A stretch of 64,000 nucleotides of DNA from a virus (Duplodnaviria > Caudoviricetes), in IMG/VR virus record IMGVR_UViG_3300037722_001090, one strand, 5' to 3'. Positions within the stretch are counted from its first letter, which is position 1. Each line of letters opens with the position of its first letter. The notes beneath the pieces were generated by a model. The model had not been told where the DNA came from, ran no database searches, and was given only the letters and a program-made list of their open reading frames with translations. Positions 10,327 to 36,652 of the stretch are shown here, one piece after another. The translations under genes were made by a program, and so were the position numbers.

Positions 10327-10362
10327 TGGTGCCCCTGGTAGGATTCGAACCTACGACAAGTG
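10327..10362 (-). pseudogene. 3' half of a disrupted tRNA (probably Arg)
   Basis: GTAGG-TTCGAAT-CCTAC-CAGGGGC-A-CCA; pairs with the 5' half at 11086-11117. Confidence 0.85.
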
Positions 10363-10363
10363 A

Positions 10364-10373
10364 GTTAATAACA
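10364..10373 (+). promoter_or_regulatory. GTTAATAACA motif variant
   Basis: At the tRNA truncation point, upstream of the HNH gene. Confidence 0.55.
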
Positions 10374-10408
10374 AATATGATTTCGAATCATAAAATAAAG
10401 GAGCTACC

Positions 10409-10987
10409 ATGTTAGTAAAATGTAAAAATTGCAATAAAGAATTTGATAAAATACCAAGTCAAATTGCAAAATCTAAAAATAATTTTTGTTCTAAATCATG
10501 TAGTGCAACATTTAACAATAAAGGTAAGCAGCGTAATCCACCAAAGATAAGAATTTGTAGACAATGTAGTTTAACATATACGTATAAGCGAAAAGAAAAC
10601 ACATTAACTTTTTGCTCTAACTGCCTTAATACACTTAAAATAGATCGCAATAAAAACATAAGTTTTGTTTCAGAACAAATTAAGCAACTCACAATTGGAG
10701 AATATCGAAATAAAGAATCCGTAAAAAGCAAACACCCATCATGGAAACATGCTCATATTCGTATACTTAATAGATCGTGGAATGCAGATTTAACTAAAAT
10801 ACCATGTCAAAACTGTAAATATGATAAACATATTGAACTATGCCATATTAAATCTGTAGCATCATTTAAAGACAATGCAGTGCTATTAGAAGTTAATAGT
10901 CCAGATAATAATCTTGTACTTTGCAGAAATTGTCATTGGGAGCTTGATAATAATATTATTAAGATTGAAGATATACCTAAAAGATAA
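10409..10987 (+). CDS. HNH homing endonuclease with Zn ribbons
   Basis: CQNC..HIELCHIK..NLVLCRNCH; antisense insert inside a tRNA gene. Confidence 0.9.
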   Translation: MLVKCKNCNKEFDKIPSQIAKSKNNFCSKSCSATFNNKGKQRNPPKIRICRQCSLTYTYKRKENTLTFCSNCLNTLKIDRNKNISFVSEQIKQLTIGEYRNKESVKSKHPSWKHAHIRILNRSWNADLTKIPCQNCKYDKHIELCHIKSVASFKDNAVLLEVNSPDNNLVLCRNCHWELDNNIIKIEDIPKR

Positions 10988-10990
10988 TAA

Positions 10991-11075
10991 TGGAGCGCCC
11001 TGGAGGAATCGAACCTCTCACATCCATCCAACTTTTTATGTACGGGTTTAGAAGACCCGTGTTGGAGCAGGGCGC
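10991..11075 (-). tRNA. D-armless tRNA-Arg(TCT)-like gene
   Basis: GCGCCCTG/CAGGGCGC-T-CCA; ACGGGT-CTTCTAA-ACCCGT; D arm replaced by CTCCAAC. Confidence 0.75.
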
Positions 11076-11085
11076 ACTACCTTAA

Positions 11086-11117
11086 ACCTTCTGCTCTATC
11101 CGCTGAGCTACAGAGGC
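11086..11117 (-). pseudogene. 5' half of a disrupted tRNA (Arg-type D loop)
   Basis: GCCTCTG-TA-GCTC-AGCGGATA-GAGC; acceptor complements 10327-10362. Confidence 0.85.
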
Positions 11118-14883: not shown

Positions 14884-15102
14884 TTAATTATACAGTTTAG
14901 CATTTTCAGAAGGAACTATACATCCATTAGGACAGTCTGTTAAAACTGGATAGTCAATATCCTTAAATATAGTTTTACAATAAATACAATAAGAAATTTT
15001 AGGATTTTCTAGTCTGCATTTATCACAAAAAAAGCCTGAATCTCCATACTCAAACTCTTCCCCACACCTAATACAATCACCAAAATAATCTTGTCTACTC
15101 AT
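14884..15102 (-). CDS. small Zn-finger protein
   Basis: CxxC pairs. Confidence 0.55.
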   Translation of the reverse strand: MSRQDYFGDCIRCGEEFEYGDSGFFCDKCRLENPKISYCIYCKTIFKDIDYPVLTDCPNGCIVPSENAKLYN

Positions 15103-15797
15103 TTTTCTTCCTCTTCAGCCTTATCATATCCAACACGAGTATGATAAATAGAATCAAGCTCACGAGTAAGTTTTTCTCTTACCTTACGTAATGTACCAAC
15201 TTTCATTTCATCTAGTTGTTCATCATCACGAAGATAATCAATAGTAGATGAGACACAGTTAGATTTTTCTTCATGTGATTCAAGTTTTCCTGCTGAATGA
15301 AGAAACTTAGCCTTAGCCTCAATTGAATCAACAATCATTAAAACTGAAGAATAAGGACAATTAGGTTTAGGCCCTTTATAACGATAAGCATGGTCACCAA
15401 TACCAGAATCTTTTACTTTATTATACATAGCCTGAAGAACAGTATCTCCATGGTGACGCGTAATGATTTCAAGAACCTGCCTTGGCATATCTGGTTCTTG
15501 TATAAGAATTGCTACACCATCAGAAGCATGGCGAGTAATAATTTGGAACGATACTTGAGGATCTAGCTTATCATGAGGATTTTCATCAGATATATTTTCA
15601 CTAAAATAGGTAGGATTCCATATCTTTCCAATATCATGATACATAGCTGCTACCTTCATAAGGTCAATATCTAGCTTTAAATCTTTAGCAATTGTTTCAC
15701 ATAAATTAGCTACATTCAAAGAGTGCTGATATGTGCCTGGAGCAATAGTTTTAAATCGCTCTAGTAGTGGATAGCTCGTGTCTAAGAACTTCTTCAT
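15099..15797 (-). CDS. HDIG-domain phosphohydrolase (soluble PgpH/7TM-HD-like domain)
   Basis: APGTYQHS, YHDIGK, YFSEN, HHGD, YRYKGPKP, IVDSIEA. Confidence 0.85.
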   Translation of the reverse strand: MKKFLDTSYPLLERFKTIAPGTYQHSLNVANLCETIAKDLKLDIDLMKVAAMYHDIGKIWNPTYFSENISDENPHDKLDPQVSFQIITRHASDGVAILIQEPDMPRQVLEIITRHHGDTVLQAMYNKVKDSGIGDHAYRYKGPKPNCPYSSVLMIVDSIEAKAKFLHSAGKLESHEEKSNCVSSTIDYLRDDEQLDEMKVGTLRKVREKLTRELDSIYHTRVGYDKAEEEEK

Positions 15798-15948
15798 TTT
15801 TATTTCCCTGCCTTATAATAATAAGGTTTGTGTTCTTAAAAGTCCAAACACAACCACAATCACCACATTCTCTTGCATCTTGTGCATATCCATCGGCATG
15901 CAGGTCTATTTCAACGTGCTCACGATGCTTACAGTTAGGACATTTCAT
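15751..15948 (-). CDS. small Zn-ribbon protein
   Basis: CPNC...CGDCGCVW. Confidence 0.6.
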   Translation of the reverse strand: MKCPNCKHREHVEIDLHADGYAQDARECGDCGCVWTFKNTNLIIIRQGNKNEEVLRHELSTTRAI

Positions 15949-15952
15949 ATAT

Positions 15953-16188
15953 TTATTTCTTCTTTTTAGTTTTATCTGCAGGTGTGAGTTTAGAAATAAT
16001 TTGATTAATATTTTCTACAACTTCTAATTCTTTACAGTCAATGAATATTAATTTAGTAGAATCTTCATATGGAACAATTCTAGCAATTAAATCTGCTCTT
16101 TGCCAAAATTTTCTACTTGTAGTACCAGCTGCAGTTCCATGAGTTTTAGGAGACCTATAAAATGTTAACTCTATAAACTTATACATCA
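15953..16188 (-). CDS. hypothetical protein
   Basis: Start set at MMYKFIEL because the upstream extension overlaps a tRNA-like gene. Confidence 0.5.
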
Positions 16189-16212
16189 TTAAGACACGCT
16201 TTCTTTTAATAG

Positions 16213-16303
16213 TGGAGCTGCCCGGTTTTGAGCCGGGATTTACCAGATTGACATCGGATATCTCCGAAAACTTAAATCGTAATACCACTTATACTACAGC
16301 CCC
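16213..16303 (-). ncRNA. tRNA-Ala-like RNA (G3:U70) with the anticodon arm replaced by an insert
   Basis: GGGGCTG/CAGCTCC-A; D arm; T arm CCCGG-CTCAAAA-CCGGG; internal hairpin TCGGA-GATA-TCCGA. Confidence 0.7.
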
Positions 16304-16304
16304 A

Positions 16305-16323
16305 TGGAAGAGGGTGTGGGATT
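16305..16323 (-). pseudogene. 3' remnant of the old tRNA-Ser
   Basis: AATCCCAC-ACCCTCT-T-CCA; complements the 5' half at 16885-16918. Confidence 0.75.
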
Positions 16324-16741
16324 AAAAATTTTGTAATTCACTAATAACCCAACTCTCTTTATTTTTTCCTGCATATTTACTGGCAATATCGCGAATACAA
16401 ATAGCTCTACCTGCATTAATTCGATCAGACTTAATAAAGCAGACCTTATCATTTGATTGAATATAAATAGCAAGAATATCGCATGTAGAAAAATCAAACT
16501 TAACAATATTATTAGCTGTTTTATTTGATCGTACTGATCCTATTTGAACAACATAAGAGCCATATTTATCTATAACACTAGTGCCTTTAACCGAGATTCT
16601 AAAAATAACACCATCTTTATATGCAATAAGATCAAATGGCGCTTTTCCAGAAGTTTGAGTAAATACATGATAATCTAATTCTGTAAGTCTAGCAGCTACT
16701 TTTAATTCAGATAATGATCCTAATTTAGTTTTATTGTCCAT
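16322..16741 (-). CDS. PD-(D/E)XK endonuclease (freestanding homing type)
   Basis: G..SEL.VAA.L, PFDLIA, ISVKGT, DILAIY. Confidence 0.82.
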   Translation of the reverse strand: MDNKTKLGSLSELKVAARLTELDYHVFTQTSGKAPFDLIAYKDGVIFRISVKGTSVIDKYGSYVVQIGSVRSNKTANNIVKFDFSTCDILAIYIQSNDKVCFIKSDRINAGRAICIRDIASKYAGKNKESWVISELQNF

Positions 16742-16761
16742 AATTATCTCCAAGTAAGTTG

Positions 16762-16848
16762 TGGAAGAAGCGGGGAGACTCGAACTCCCATGCCTTAACA
16801 GACATACTGCTTTTCAAGAGCAGCTCCTCATCCAGCCGGATCGCTTCC
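16762..16848 (-). tRNA. tRNA-Ser(TGA), cassette-borne copy
   Basis: CTGCT-CTTGAAA-AGCAG, long variable arm, CCA. Confidence 0.9.
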
Positions 16849-16859
16849 ACATGAATACT

Positions 16860-16869
16860 TGTTAATAAC
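16860..16869 (-). promoter_or_regulatory. GTTATTAACA motif
   Basis: Upstream of the new tRNA-Ser plus endonuclease. Confidence 0.65.
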
Positions 16870-16884
16870 TGCAACCTGTTGCCT

Positions 16885-16918
16885 AAACTAGTGACTTAAT
16901 CCTCTCGCCCAACCCTCC
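16885..16918 (-). pseudogene. 5' half of the old tRNA-Ser
   Basis: GGAGGGT-TGGGCGAGAGGATTAAGTCA-CTAGT, then broken. Confidence 0.8.
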
Positions 16919-16927
16919 ATTTTTAAC

Positions 16928-17692
16928 TCAACAACTAAAGTCTGTAACTAACCAGTTACCTTCATCTTTGAAATTAAGCACTGGTTTAAAGCTACCACCT
17001 TTTTTGACATAAGAAATAAGCTCTTCCTCACTAGTAATAGCTTCAGAAGTTTCATTATAGCAAAACTGTAAAGCAATTTCATTATGAGCATCACTATTAC
17101 ATAATTGGATCAAATATTTGAATTCATCTGGAATAGGACGATCCCACCCTTCAGTATCTTTAAATGAACCAAAACAGTATTGTGCAGAATTAATTAATTC
17201 AAAGCCATCAATAGCAACAACCCCTCCATGCTTAACAAAGTTAGAATCTTGGGCATTATGATTTGGTCCAAGTGCTGGATGTGCAAGAAAACAAGCTGAG
17301 CTATACTTACTACGAATATCAATAAGTTCCTGAATTGAACACATAGGCTCGAACATAGAATTATATTTTCGTAAAATTTTCCGATCACGCATTACCAATA
17401 AGGCTTCAATAGCACTACGACCAAAAAGCAAACATTCTTCCATAAGGGCAACACTAATTTCAGCACCAACAATAACAGGAATACCAACAATATTAGAAAC
17501 TACTTCAGCTTCCTTACATTGCCAAAGAAATTTTTTATAATTATTACTATAGCCTGCTTCATCAGCATATATATGGTCAGTAATTACACACGCACTAAAT
17601 CCAAGATCTTTACAGGCCTTAGCCATATCAATCATGTGATGAGCGCCATCTGAATATCGCGTATGTGCATGTAAATTAATAAAGTAACTCAT
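16928..17692 (-). CDS. PHP-family phosphoesterase
   Basis: LHAHTRYSDG, ITDH, GAEI, LAHP, NSDAH. Confidence 0.9.
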   Translation of the reverse strand: MSYFINLHAHTRYSDGAHHMIDMAKACKDLGFSACVITDHIYADEAGYSNNYKKFLWQCKEAEVVSNIVGIPVIVGAEISVALMEECLLFGRSAIEALLVMRDRKILRKYNSMFEPMCSIQELIDIRSKYSSACFLAHPALGPNHNAQDSNFVKHGGVVAIDGFELINSAQYCFGSFKDTEGWDRPIPDEFKYLIQLCNSDAHNEIALQFCYNETSEAITSEEELISYVKKGGSFKPVLNFKDEGNWLVTDFSC

Positions 17693-17841
17693 GTATTCTC
17701 CTTAAAATGTTTGAAAGATTTTTCTACCATATAGATATCTAGTCGGGGTAATCTTACAAACCCGAGATCCTAGGAGTCGTTTTCTTCACCTCAGCAAAGT
17801 GACTAGCCCTAGTTTAACTGTTTAGTAATAGGGAACTAGCA

Positions 17842-18126
17842 TTACTTACAAAGAACTTCAACCCAACTAGGCAGCTTAGCGTTACCAAATGAACGCTCAT
17901 GACTATGCACAAAATGAGGAATAGCCTTTTTGATATCATAAGGAATATCAGACAAAGCACTAATCTCAGCCTTACTGCGAACATCAGAGATAATTTCACC
18001 AATTTCACGATCAAACTTATCAGTCTTTTTGCACTTAGAATAACCAACAAGAACTTTGTCATCCTTAACCGTTGCAGTAATCATTCCGATTTTTTGTTTT
18101 TTATTATTGCGAATATACTGTTTCAT
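17842..18126 (-). CDS. hypothetical protein
   Basis: 94-aa ORF. Confidence 0.65.
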   Translation of the reverse strand: MKQYIRNNKKQKIGMITATVKDDKVLVGYSKCKKTDKFDREIGEIISDVRSKAEISALSDIPYDIKKAIPHFVHSHERSFGNAKLPSWVEVLCK

Positions 18127-18149
18127 TAACTTAACCTTTCAAAAATTGT

Positions 18150-18353
18150 TTAAATAACAAGAATAGAGCCATATATCTCTGTGGGATTTAACCCATAAGA
18201 ATCTAGCACTTCAACAACTAGTTCTTTCATTTTAGAACTATTGCCTGTAATAATCTGTAGCGCCTCTTCTTTATCCCATTGATCTTCAAGAAAGCGCTTT
18301 ACTTCATTTGATACATCTGCATGGCGAACACCATGTAAGTCCATATTAATCAT
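18150..18353 (-). CDS. Smr-domain protein
   Basis: MDLHGV...IITGNS. Confidence 0.75.
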   Translation of the reverse strand: MINMDLHGVRHADVSNEVKRFLEDQWDKEEALQIITGNSSKMKELVVEVLDSYGLNPTEIYGSILVI

Positions 18354-18625
18354 ACAATAAAAGCCTTTTCAAGCATTACTATATAAAGAGGTTTTCCAAA
18401 CTTTGTCATTACCTCTAATGTCCCATTACCTGGGCCAAAAATAGCATCTTCTCCACAGTTTTTAACACGGAGAAAATTTCTACACTTTACACCGCTCATT
18501 CTCCACTCTTTAAGTTCCCACCACTTATCAGTTTCAGAATAATAAAAGCCAAAATTTATTCTCAATTCTACTGGCAGTTCAGTTTTTAAAATAGCAATGC
18601 CTTCTTTAATTTTTTCTTTATCCAT
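18350..18625 (-). CDS. hypothetical protein
   Basis: 91-aa ORF. Confidence 0.6.
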   Translation of the reverse strand: MDKEKIKEGIAILKTELPVELRINFGFYYSETDKWWELKEWRMSGVKCRNFLRVKNCGEDAIFGPGNGTLEVMTKFGKPLYIVMLEKAFIV

Positions 18626-30833: not shown

Positions 30834-30974
30834 TTTATTAGGGTATAAGCGAAAAGAGTGTTTAAATCGGATGCTCTACCAACTGAGCTATATCGTTCGC
30901 GTGAGCTTTCAATAATGGGAATTGAACCCATGACCGTCTGAGGGGAAGTATCTCTTATCTACGCCACTAATAAA
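30834..30974 (-). ncRNA. Y RNA-like 3 (YrlA-type)
   Basis: TTTATTAG-TGGCGTAG-ATAAGAG ... ATGGG-TTCAATT-CCCAT ... AGCTCAGTTGGTAGAGC ... CTCTTTTCGCTTATACC-CTAATAAA. Confidence 0.8.
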
Positions 30975-31687: not shown

Positions 31688-31830
31688 TTTTACAAGGAAC
31701 AAACGACAACACAAATTTTTAGCGCTCTACCGATTGAGCTACACATATGCTTTTGGCATACATGACAGGACTCGAACCTGCAACCACTCTATTAGCATTA
31801 GATGTAAGTGTTATCTACGCCATTGTAAAA
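31688..31830 (-). ncRNA. Y RNA-like 4 (YrlA-type)
   Basis: TTTTACAA-TGGCGTAG-ATAACAC ... GCAGG-TTCGAGT-CCTGT, closed acceptor, D arm ... GTCGTTTGTTCC-TTGTAAAA. Confidence 0.8.
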
Positions 31831-33423: not shown

Positions 33424-33468
33424 TGGTTGGGATAACTGGATTTGAACCAGTGACCCCCGAGTTATCAG
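33424..33468 (-). pseudogene. 3' part of the old tRNA-Ile(GAT)
   Basis: CTGATAA-CTCGG-GGGTC-ACTGG-TTCAAAT-CCAGT-TATCCCA-A-CCA. Confidence 0.9.
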
Positions 33469-33472
33469 CTTT

Positions 33473-33546
33473 TGGTACGCTCACTAAGAATTGAACTTAG
33501 ATGGTCCGGTTATCAGCCGAATCCTCTACCGTTGAGGTATGAGCGT
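33473..33546 (-). tRNA. tRNA-Ile(GAT), cassette-borne copy
   Basis: TTCGG-CTGATAA-CCGGA; ACGCTCA/TGAGCGT-A-CCA. Confidence 0.9.
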
Positions 33547-33561
33547 ATAGTTTCGAATTTA

Positions 33562-33571
33562 GTTATTAACA
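33562..33571 (+). promoter_or_regulatory. GTTATTAACA motif
   Basis: 28 nt upstream of the HNH start. Confidence 0.65.
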
Positions 33572-33599
33572 CTTATCACATATTGATAAGGAGTTAATA

Positions 33600-34085
33600 A
33601 TGAATTCATGCTTAAATTGTAGTAAAGAAACACTTAATCCAGTATTTTGTTCACGCTCATGTTCTGCTTCCTATGCTAATAAAATAAAGCCAAAACGTAA
33701 GAAAGAGGGTAAATGTGCAATCTGTAATGAAATAATCTCTGCTTCAAGGGCTTATTGTTCAGATATTTGTCGTGGTAAAGCTAGATCTATTGCCCGTAAA
33801 AATTCTAAAGCAAAAACGGGATATGAAAATATAAAAACCCACCGGCAAAAAGTCAAATTAAGAGCCGTACAATATAAAGGAGATAAATGTCAAATATGTA
33901 ATTATGATAAAACACCAGTTAATCTATCATTTCATCATTTAAATCCAGGTAAAAAAGATTTTAACCTTAGTGGTAATTATCACTTAACCTGGGAGACAAT
34001 ACAGGCTGAACTTGATAAATGTATTTTATTATGTATGAATTGTCATGGAGAAGTTCATGTAGGAATTATAAAAATTCCAGACTGA
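33600..34085 (+). CDS. HNH homing endonuclease
   Basis: CLNC, FCSRSC; CQICNY, SFHH, KCILLCMNCHGEVH. Confidence 0.9.
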   Translation: MNSCLNCSKETLNPVFCSRSCSASYANKIKPKRKKEGKCAICNEIISASRAYCSDICRGKARSIARKNSKAKTGYENIKTHRQKVKLRAVQYKGDKCQICNYDKTPVNLSFHHLNPGKKDFNLSGNYHLTWETIQAELDKCILLCMNCHGEVHVGIIKIPD

Positions 34086-34096
34086 GCTATACCCCA
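34077..34096 (-). pseudogene. 5' fragment of the old tRNA-Ile
   Basis: TGGGGTA-TA-GCTC-AGTCTGG; acceptor complements TATCCCA. Confidence 0.85.
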
Positions 34097-34916: not shown

Positions 34917-34990
34917 TGGTCGAAAGTGATGGACTTTAACCACCGGCCTCCTCCACCCAAGGAGGTGCCCCTTCACCGGGCCGACTTTCG
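34917..34990 (-). tRNA. atypical tRNA-Pro-like gene (6-nt anticodon loop)
   Basis: CGAAAGT/ACTTTCG-A-CCA; CCTCC-TTGGGT-GGAGG; T loop TTAAAGT. Confidence 0.6.
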
Positions 34991-36094: not shown

Positions 36095-36177
36095 TGGCTC
36101 TGAGAGTTGGATTTGAACCAACGACCTCGCTTTTTAAAGGCGGCCACCTACGCGCTCTACCACTGAGCTATCTCAGA
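36095..36177 (-). ncRNA. tRNA body with a distorted anticodon arm (contains CTTTAAA)
   Basis: Canonical acceptor, D and T arms; about 9 extra nt in the anticodon region. Confidence 0.65.
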
Positions 36178-36560: not shown

Positions 36561-36652
36561 TGGCTCCCCAGAGTGGGCTCGAACCACTATACCGCTCTCG
36601 CGGAATACACTTGATTAACAGTCAAGCCTCTTACCAATTAGAGTACCGAGGA
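36561..36652 (-). tRNA. tRNA-Asn(GTT) with a long variable arm
   Basis: CTTGA-CTGTTAA-TCAAG; variable hairpin TTCCGC-GAGA-GCGGTA; G73; CCA. Confidence 0.85.

Follow-up and report, generated by a model that had tools for sequence, protein, structure and literature searches.

We analysed a stretch of 64,000 nucleotides (nt) of DNA from a tailed virus (Duplodnaviria; Caudoviricetes; IMG/VR record IMGVR_UViG_3300037722_001090), hereafter the window, with regard to 614 bases of its minus strand (16918–16305) in which a transfer RNA (tRNA) gene, a tRNA-Ser as judged from its sequence, is broken by a cassette that holds a promoter-like motif, a predicted second tRNA-Ser(UGA) and the gene of a PD-(D/E)XK nuclease. 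The interval brackets the dead tRNA gene exactly, from base 1 to its CCA end (bases 1–76), and starts next to a PHP-domain gene, the upstream neighbour on the same strand, which ends at 16928. The 5′ remnant of the old gene (16918–16887; positions 1–31) comprises the acceptor strand GGAGGGT, a D-arm whose 3-base-pair (bp) stem keeps its pairing via G-U, and the anticodon-stem 5′ strand CTAGT. It runs into an anticodon-arm-like hairpin (16891–16875), made up of CTAGT, the 7-nt loop TTAGGCA and the partly complementary ACAGG. The cassette is headed by the promoter-like motif GTTATTAACA (16869–16860), followed by the complete "new" tRNA-Ser(UGA), recognized by its fold and by ARAGORN under relaxed settings (16848–16762), a spacer with the ribosome-binding site GGAG (16761–16742) and an open reading frame (ORF) of 139 amino acids (aa) that matches the PF11645 nuclease family (16741–16322). 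The 3′ remnant (16323–16305; AAT-CCCAC-ACCCTCT-T-CCA) overlaps the nuclease stop codon and corresponds to the T-loop end, the T-stem 3′ strand, the acceptor 3′ strand, U73 and CCA. This nested layout, in which the halves of an old tRNA-Ser enclose the motif, a new tRNA-Ser(TGA) and a PD-(D/E)XK gene, had been proposed in a preliminary description of the window and was borne out, with all elements on the minus strand.

The identity of the broken gene was assessed with a pattern in which GGAGGGT and the 15-nt 3′ piece (T-loop, T-stem and acceptor 3′ strand) were fixed and 48–75 bases between them were left free. All 21 metagenome stretches that matched this pattern were tRNA-Ser genes (14 with anticodon UGA, 5 with CGA and 2 with ACU), located without exception in dense phage-type tRNA clusters and mostly endowed with U73 and an encoded CCA. 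Such agreement exceeds what chance would produce. The 3′ part of these 21 intact genes, which had served as the search pattern, is matched exactly by the old 3′ remnant. Positions 8–31, which lie outside the pattern, agreed best with the tRNA-Ser(UGA) of comparison sequence L028 (21 of 25 positions, the stem strand CACTAGT included), which ranked top among 242 tRNAs compared, and six of the seven top tRNAs were Ser. Furthermore, the acceptor strands of the old 5′ and 3′ pieces pair at seven out of seven positions, with one G-U pair. The earlier assignment of the broken gene to Ser was therefore upheld, both by the look-alikes and by positions 8–31. Nor do the halves derive from different tRNAs, as they pair with each other and both match one family that is Ser in 21 of 21 cases. 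On these comparisons, we regard the old gene as a tRNA-Ser, and its predicted isoacceptor is most likely UGA.

The variable arm and the T-stem 5′ strand of the old gene are deleted, so that positions 1–31 (possibly to 43) and about 54/58–76 are left, and the right-hand junction falls at a 4-nt microhomology, AATC, common to the end of the corresponding cassette in the syntenic relative L004 described below. With respect to the previous statement that the old anticodon is lost, the absence of a Ser anticodon from the pieces agrees with it, but the arm as such may persist as the hairpin at 16891–16875. In L004, its homolog (74%) is a perfect hairpin of 11 bp immediately ahead of GTTATTAACA, and the hairpin of the window may have been left over from the old anticodon arm, with its loop mutated, or else belong to the cassette as a conserved element. 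The pairing of the outer acceptor strands (7/7) would also be expected if the 614 bases were an intron-bearing tRNA-Ser gene, spliced to a working tRNA, and the nuclease family is indeed intron-borne elsewhere (I-Ssp6803I in tRNA-fMet, and the insert of L005, see below). We nevertheless consider this reading hardly credible: the old pieces hold neither a Ser anticodon nor the variable arm nor the T-stem 5′ strand and therefore cannot yield a tRNA by joining, a search of 16100–17000 with Rfam gave no Intron_gpI match at E ≤ 10, and the insert holds a complete tRNA of its own. An intron-bearing tRNA composed of the old 5′ piece and the new tRNA, called by ARAGORN at a low threshold, was likewise rejected, since those acceptor strands are unpaired.

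The 139-aa ORF matched PF11645 (PDDEXK_5) over residues 4–116 with an E-value of 7.6e-16 and 58.8 bits (cutoff 26.1). In a single-sequence search, PDB entry 2OST (I-Ssp6803I) was the only match below E 0.01, at E 0.0015, and a profile of 19 homologs aligned to it over the full length (residues 2–123 to 2–124; E 8.5e-14). D37 and K52 are invariant across these homologs, and E12 is kept in at least 90% of them. The PD-(D/E)XK assignment made at the outset is thus confirmed by both the family and the profile search, and, as far as the sequence tells, the nuclease is a member of the PF11645/I-Ssp6803I family with an intact catalytic core, composed of a Glu on helix 1, an Asp and x-V-Lys. The gene has its own ORF, ribosome-binding site and motif (the promoter role of the latter being suggested by its position) and lies outside any intron or intein.

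I-Ssp6803I itself is encoded in a group I intron of 655 nt within the tRNA-fMet gene of Synechocystis (PMC1995217). A similar situation was found in L005, a bacterial metagenome-assembled contig (1203–1961), where an insert of 669 nt, close in size to the Synechocystis intron, separates loop position 38 of a tRNA-Ser(UGA) from stem position 39 and encodes P0029, a PF11645 homolog 48% identical to the nuclease of the window. The joined exons of L005 form a perfect 90-nt tRNA-Ser(UGA), and the insert gave a weak match (12.6 bits) to Rfam Intron_gpI. By its sequence organization, L005 would be the second tRNA-intron home of this nuclease family after tRNA-fMet. Taking I-Ssp6803I and L005 together, tRNA targeting in this family is ancestral and not newly evolved.

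The new tRNA combines the acceptor stem GGAAGCG/CGCTTCT, with a G1-U72 pair, and a 3-bp D-stem with the anticodon loop CTTGAAA, a 6-bp variable arm, the T-loop TTCGAGT, U73 and an encoded CCA. Its minimum-energy fold in RNAfold is the full class-II cloverleaf (−33.3 kcal/mol, 46% of the ensemble, z −2.7), and ARAGORN calls it Ser(tga) only at a lowered threshold. Its D-arm is nearly identical to a tRNA-Ser fragment in L046. It is predicted to work as a tRNA-Ser(UGA). The anticodon stems of the linked and the resident-type tRNA differ at four positions (CTGCT/AGCAG versus CTAGT/ACTAG), and these differences could give the linked tRNA immunity to cutting.

The nearest homolog of the nuclease is P0026 (74% protein identity), encoded on L004, which shares the gene neighbourhood of the locus: Smr and a 94/106-aa gene upstream and HD_4 and PhoH downstream, with these proteins being 46–55% identical. 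In L004, the unit is arranged in the same way: the 15-nt string of the motif recurs and is followed by a tRNA-Ser(UGA), by the spacer string ACTTGGAGATAA, likewise shared, and by the nuclease. Homology between both sequences starts approximately 25 nt upstream of the motif and stops at the nuclease stop codon, with nucleotide identities of 74% in the hairpin plus promoter and 73% in the ORF, a value of 69% in the spacer and the lowest, 63.5%, in the tRNA. The perfect 11-bp hairpin of L004 aligns with the old anticodon-stem region of the window, with paired TA-to-AT changes that keep complementarity, and its 3′ flank ends in a string like a tRNA 3′ end; no clear old acceptor or D-arm was found when L004 was examined.

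Exact copies of GTTATTAACA were observed eight times in the window (0.31 expected). In its own orientation, each copy is followed at 20–50 nt by a start codon with GGAG ahead of it or, in the cassette, by the tRNA. The genes behind the eight copies are two of the GIY-YIG and two of the HNH type, the PD-(D/E)XK cassette, an ORF between two sub-threshold group I intron matches and two genes without an assigned type; a copy with one mismatch precedes an HNH_2 gene. The motif heads nearly every free-standing endonuclease gene in the window. In L004, it is found ahead of the unit of tRNA and nuclease and ahead of a GIY-YIG gene. A scan with the sigma-70 consensus detected no promoter at GTTATTAACA, and the sole "terminator" called was the tRNA anticodon arm. 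The possibility that the motif is a junction or recombination site was rejected, given that its copies precede endonuclease genes in both the window and L004. GTTATTAACA is best read as a promoter-like expression signal of the endonuclease genes of this lineage, and the cassette as a putative single transcription unit in which the motif would drive co-transcription of tRNA-Ser(UGA), the ribosome-binding site and the nuclease. With regard to the intron matches just mentioned, a nicotinamide phosphoribosyltransferase gene is split at 24052–26341 into NAMPT_N (25913–26341) and NAPRTase (24052–25014), and the gap between both parts holds sub-threshold group I intron matches at 25095–25273 (46.2 bits, cutoff 50) and 25651–25924 (29.9 bits), together with a 187-aa ORF (25200–25763) behind GTTATTAACA.

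Further information came from cultured phages of the genera Felixounavirus and Suspvirus. Among 264 records sharing flanks, the nuclease gene was present in exactly eight, and one tRNA-Ser(UGA) allele (98.9–100% identity) was found in the same eight records and in no others among the 50,697 phage records searched. In phages devoid of the nuclease, flanks of 97–98% identity enclose another tRNA-Ser(UGA) allele, which is 70% identical. Salmonella phage NJ12 and coliphage CHB7 represent different genera, and in both of them a tRNA-Ser(UGA) is located 22 nt upstream of the PF11645 gene. The Felixounavirus/Suspvirus case is a clean, remnant-free allele swap of tRNA plus nuclease. A joint movement of the nuclease and the new tRNA is backed by these independent loci, namely by the recurrence of the unit in L004 and the linkage in eight of eight of these records.

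On a broader scale, a tRNA adjoins the PF11645 gene in all 13 sampled loci. Ser tRNAs are the neighbours in Streptomyces phages Navo and Jada (GCU) and in L046 and L048/L049 (UGA), Leu tRNAs in Vibrio phage pVp-1 (UAG) and in L009 and L045 (UAA), and Arg/Val, Met/Asn and Cys tRNAs in three further loci. Several of these loci show traces at the boundaries of the nuclease gene. In L046 (1473–1945), a 27-nt 5′ fragment of a tRNA-Ser abuts the nuclease ATG and an intact Ser(UGA) follows the gene; in L045 (1900–1945), a T-arm/acceptor 3′ remnant follows the nuclease stop codon; and in L048 (1857–1942), the end of the nuclease ORF falls within an intact tRNA-Ser(UGA), in its 5′ half. The broken type of L046 resembles the intact tRNA of the window in its D-arm, and the intact type of L046 resembles the broken tRNA of the window in its stem, which hints at reciprocal allele specificities of different cassettes. 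If true, such reciprocity would keep the tRNA-Ser(UGA) alleles of phages in constant turnover.

Some homologs adjoin tRNAs that are neither Ser nor Leu (Arg/Val, Met/Asn, Cys), and the window has at least eight endonuclease-like genes, mostly beside tRNAs; both observations would also fit a nuclease that does not target tRNA-Ser at all. In such a scenario, endonuclease genes would merely gather in insertion-tolerant tRNA clusters, and the old pieces would stem from an unrelated recombination between tandem tRNA-Ser genes. This seems quite improbable to us in view of the linkage of the nuclease to one tRNA-Ser(UGA) allele in eight of eight records, the homolog within the tRNA-Ser(UGA) anticodon loop in L005, the fact that the family prototype cuts the anticodon region of a tRNA gene, and the repeated association of the nearest homologs with Ser(UGA).

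The best reading of the locus would be that the cassette broke and functionally replaced the original tRNA-Ser gene of the phage, and we think it probable that the element is a homing endonuclease of the free-standing kind, kept harmless by a carried spare tRNA and not by splicing out. The predicted target of the nuclease is most likely the anticodon region of tRNA-Ser(UGA); the old gene is interrupted at its anticodon arm or past it, and the insertion of L005 is at 38/39 of a tRNA-Ser(UGA). According to this model, the nuclease would cut resident-type tRNA-Ser(UGA) genes in or near the DNA of the anticodon arm, a natural near-palindrome, and the break would then be repaired from a cassette-bearing genome, which would install the unit. 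The cassette tRNA, with its different anticodon stem, would escape cutting and restore the decoding of UCN codons, so that the invasion would be costless to the phage. In the window, an untidy repair would have ended at short homologies (AATC on the right and the anticodon-stem region on the left), and dead flanks would have remained. The nuclease may still be active and the unit mobile at present. A more far-reaching proposal, which we put forward tentatively and judge somewhat improbable, is that PD-(D/E)XK passengers of former tRNA introns gave rise to "spare-part" homing cassettes in phages, free of a ribozyme and equipped with a cut-resistant copy of the tRNA under attack. As part of this proposal, the hairpin ahead of the cassette promoter could serve as half of a target, retained and bound by the nuclease for self-regulation, and the linked tRNA alleles might differ in their sensitivity to host tRNA-cleaving defences.

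Several observations weigh against the replacement of the old gene by a mobile unit with a functional tRNA. Firstly, the classical acidic residue of the (D/E)xK motif, two positions before K52, is a Ser; the corresponding residue of I-Ssp6803I is a Gln, and the Ser is therefore not an argument against activity. Secondly, the new tRNA was missed by ARAGORN with default settings and by Rfam even at E ≤ 10, and it shows oddities (a connector of 1 nt, the 3-bp D-stem and A8), its function as a tRNA being predicted from the sequence. The A8, the single connector base and the 3-bp D-stem are common to other Ser tRNAs of this phage group, and the Ser(UGA) genes that ARAGORN calls in L004 and L048 are likewise overlooked by Rfam, so that the miss reflects the model more than the gene. 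Thirdly, of all parts of the unit, the tRNA has diverged most between the window and L004, which is a misfit with a simple recent transfer of the whole unit. Fourthly, the location of the cassette in the same neighbourhood in L004 makes one old, vertically inherited insertion possible, and present mobility rests on inference. Lastly, no empty allele was found: in the five contigs with an identical flanking protein, the cassette was present wherever the region was covered, and the contigs of four further sediment runs held only the cassette-bearing form, a non-finding that proves nothing on absence.

Other searches for an empty site gave a similar picture. A single "joint" reported in the contigs of the four runs was rejected, since it came from a contig of a different phage. 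L001 and L002 are 100% identical to the window across the whole element and therefore add nothing on the empty allele, and the nuclease is identical in five contigs. In five loci found via the upstream PHP protein (L003 and L010–L013), other genes follow PHP and no empty site was present, and scans of IMG/VR with the PHP protein, a strict pattern of the old tRNA or a pattern of the cassette gave no match.

These results also bear on the view that the locus is a fixed scar, resulting from a single entry in the ancestor of the window and L004 and inherited vertically since then, with the nuclease inactive or repurposed and the tRNA an ordinary Ser(UGA). The shared neighbourhood (Smr, the 94/106-aa gene, HD_4 and PhoH), the derived bases common to the hairpins of the window and L004 upstream of the motif, and the lack of an empty allele among the contigs examined are compatible with such a history, as is the nucleotide identity of the cassette (72%), which is about that of the best-conserved stretches of the flanking genes (70–77%). 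At the protein level, however, the nuclease is 74% identical whereas the neighbouring core proteins are only 46–55% identical, its catalytic residues are intact, and related units in Felixounavirus and Suspvirus are polymorphic for presence and absence and cross genus boundaries. On balance, we regard a fixed scar as unlikely, and a mobile unit with a spare tRNA remains our preferred explanation.

The preliminary description had further taken the use of different nuclease families for the same outcome as a sign of convergence. This holds at the level of the architecture, since an HNH gene lies in a tRNA-Ile (33424–34096) and an HNH_2 gene in another tRNA (10330–11113), but it does not extend to the targeting of tRNAs, which is ancestral for the PF11645 family. 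In the first of these loci, a tRNA-Ile(GAU) is split in the D-loop by an antisense HNH gene (33600–34085, plus strand) with GTTATTAACA, a complete divergent tRNA-Ile(GAU) is present at 33546–33473, the old acceptor strands are paired at 7/7 positions, and the old 3′ piece begins in the anticodon loop. The second one consists of a tRNA 5′ piece (approximately 11113–11080; acceptor GCCTCTG, D-arm and stem strand) and a 3′ piece (10363–10330; T-arm and CAGGGGC-A-CCA), which enclose an odd tRNA-like gene (10994–11076; loop CTTCTAA; Rfam tRNA-Sec at 33.8 bits, below the cutoff) and an antisense HNH_2 gene (10409–10987) with the one-mismatch copy of GTTATTAACA ahead of it.

Homing endonucleases usually spare their host by means of self-splicing introns, inteins or intergenic insertion sites. 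A different solution was reportedly described by Bonocora and coworkers in 2011, according to whom mobA of phage T4 and the bypass element of gene 60 are said to form a mobile cassette. As in the window, the endonuclease travels there with a second element that neutralizes the damage of the insertion, but the neutralizer is a translational bypass in a protein gene and not a spare copy of the target. The cassette shares with I-Ssp6803I (2OST) the PF11645 family, the size class and a tRNA gene as home and presumed target. It differs from I-Ssp6803I in that no intron was found by Rfam, the exons are incomplete and the host gene is a phage tRNA-Ser(UGA), and in that neutrality is achieved via the carried spare tRNA and not via splicing.

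SegB of phages T4 and T6 cleaves inside tRNA genes and is spread together with the tRNA genes next to it (PMC2330249), and its homologs co-locate with tRNAs across phages (PMC13096335). Like SegB and the intronless homing of SegF, the cassette relies on an endonuclease gene that stands free within the tRNA cluster of a phage. However, SegB is a GIY-YIG enzyme that recognizes a conserved T-arm motif of many tRNAs, whereas the cassette has a PD-(D/E)XK enzyme tied to one isoacceptor and to one divergent allele, and leaves the resident gene as split remnants. Closer in outcome are the mORFs of fungal mitochondria (Allomyces atp6; Glomus atp6, atp9, cox2 and nad3), by which a foreign gene end is brought in (PMC3630166). 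There too, an endonuclease inserts in a gene, brings a divergent replacement and leaves a native piece stranded, in that case downstream. In contrast to the cassette, mORFs affect protein-coding genes, of which they exchange no more than the C-terminus, and their enzymes are of the LAGLIDADG or GIY-YIG type; the cassette supplies a whole RNA gene and has remnants on both sides. Full-text literature searches retrieved no description of PF11645/I-Ssp6803I-like enzymes as free-standing, tRNA-tied phage elements. What is new is the nuclease family, the linkage to one isoacceptor and one allele, the delivery of an entire RNA gene and the presence of remnants at either end.

If the proposed reading is correct, breaking the target and bringing a replacement would be a third route by which homing endonucleases are tolerated in RNA genes. 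The small PD-(D/E)XK homing family, of which a single cyanobacterial intron enzyme has been known, would gain a wide phage membership consistently tied to class-II tRNA genes. Such units would explain orphan tRNA halves in phage tRNA clusters, sharp allele differences in a single tRNA between close phage relatives, and phage tRNAs that escape standard finders. Since cultured phages of E. coli and Salmonella carry the same kind of unit, the model is testable at the bench, and the enzymes may serve as compact, palindrome-reading nucleases specific for tRNA genes.

With respect to the surroundings of the locus, all tRNA genes of the window are on the minus strand. One base past the old CCA lies a neighbouring tRNA-like gene (16303–16213, minus strand; Rfam tRNA, 33.2 bits), which places the old gene within a tRNA cluster. 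This neighbour folds into an acceptor, a T-arm and a central hairpin and also has a good D arm; it has no normal anticodon loop, its anticodon region being 34 nt long and containing a 5-bp hairpin with a GAUA loop. A DNA search with 15000–18500 against the 50,697 phage records gave no match. The phage comes from sediment and soil metagenomes, in which the longest contig with an identical flanking protein is approximately 205 kilobases long.

Other unusual RNA candidates were observed elsewhere in the window. A match of 126 nt to the tRNA model (53406–53531; 51 bits), with approximately 50 extra bases in the anticodon/variable region and missed by ARAGORN, lies near a GIY-YIG gene (54043–54816). 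Sub-threshold matches to YrlA (Y-RNA-like) were obtained at 31703–31805 (40.9 bits) and 30847–30958 (28.9 bits). ARAGORN tRNAs with two-base "anticodons" (6-nt loops) are located at 34917–34990 and 36095–36177, and the unusually long tRNAs of the window include those at 977–1067 and 36561–36652. Finally, tRNAs with a CUA anticodon, of the amber suppressor type and labelled "Pyl" by ARAGORN, were found in the phage-like contigs L009 (3350–3423) and L018 (3559–3649), adjacent to the tRNA genes compared above.

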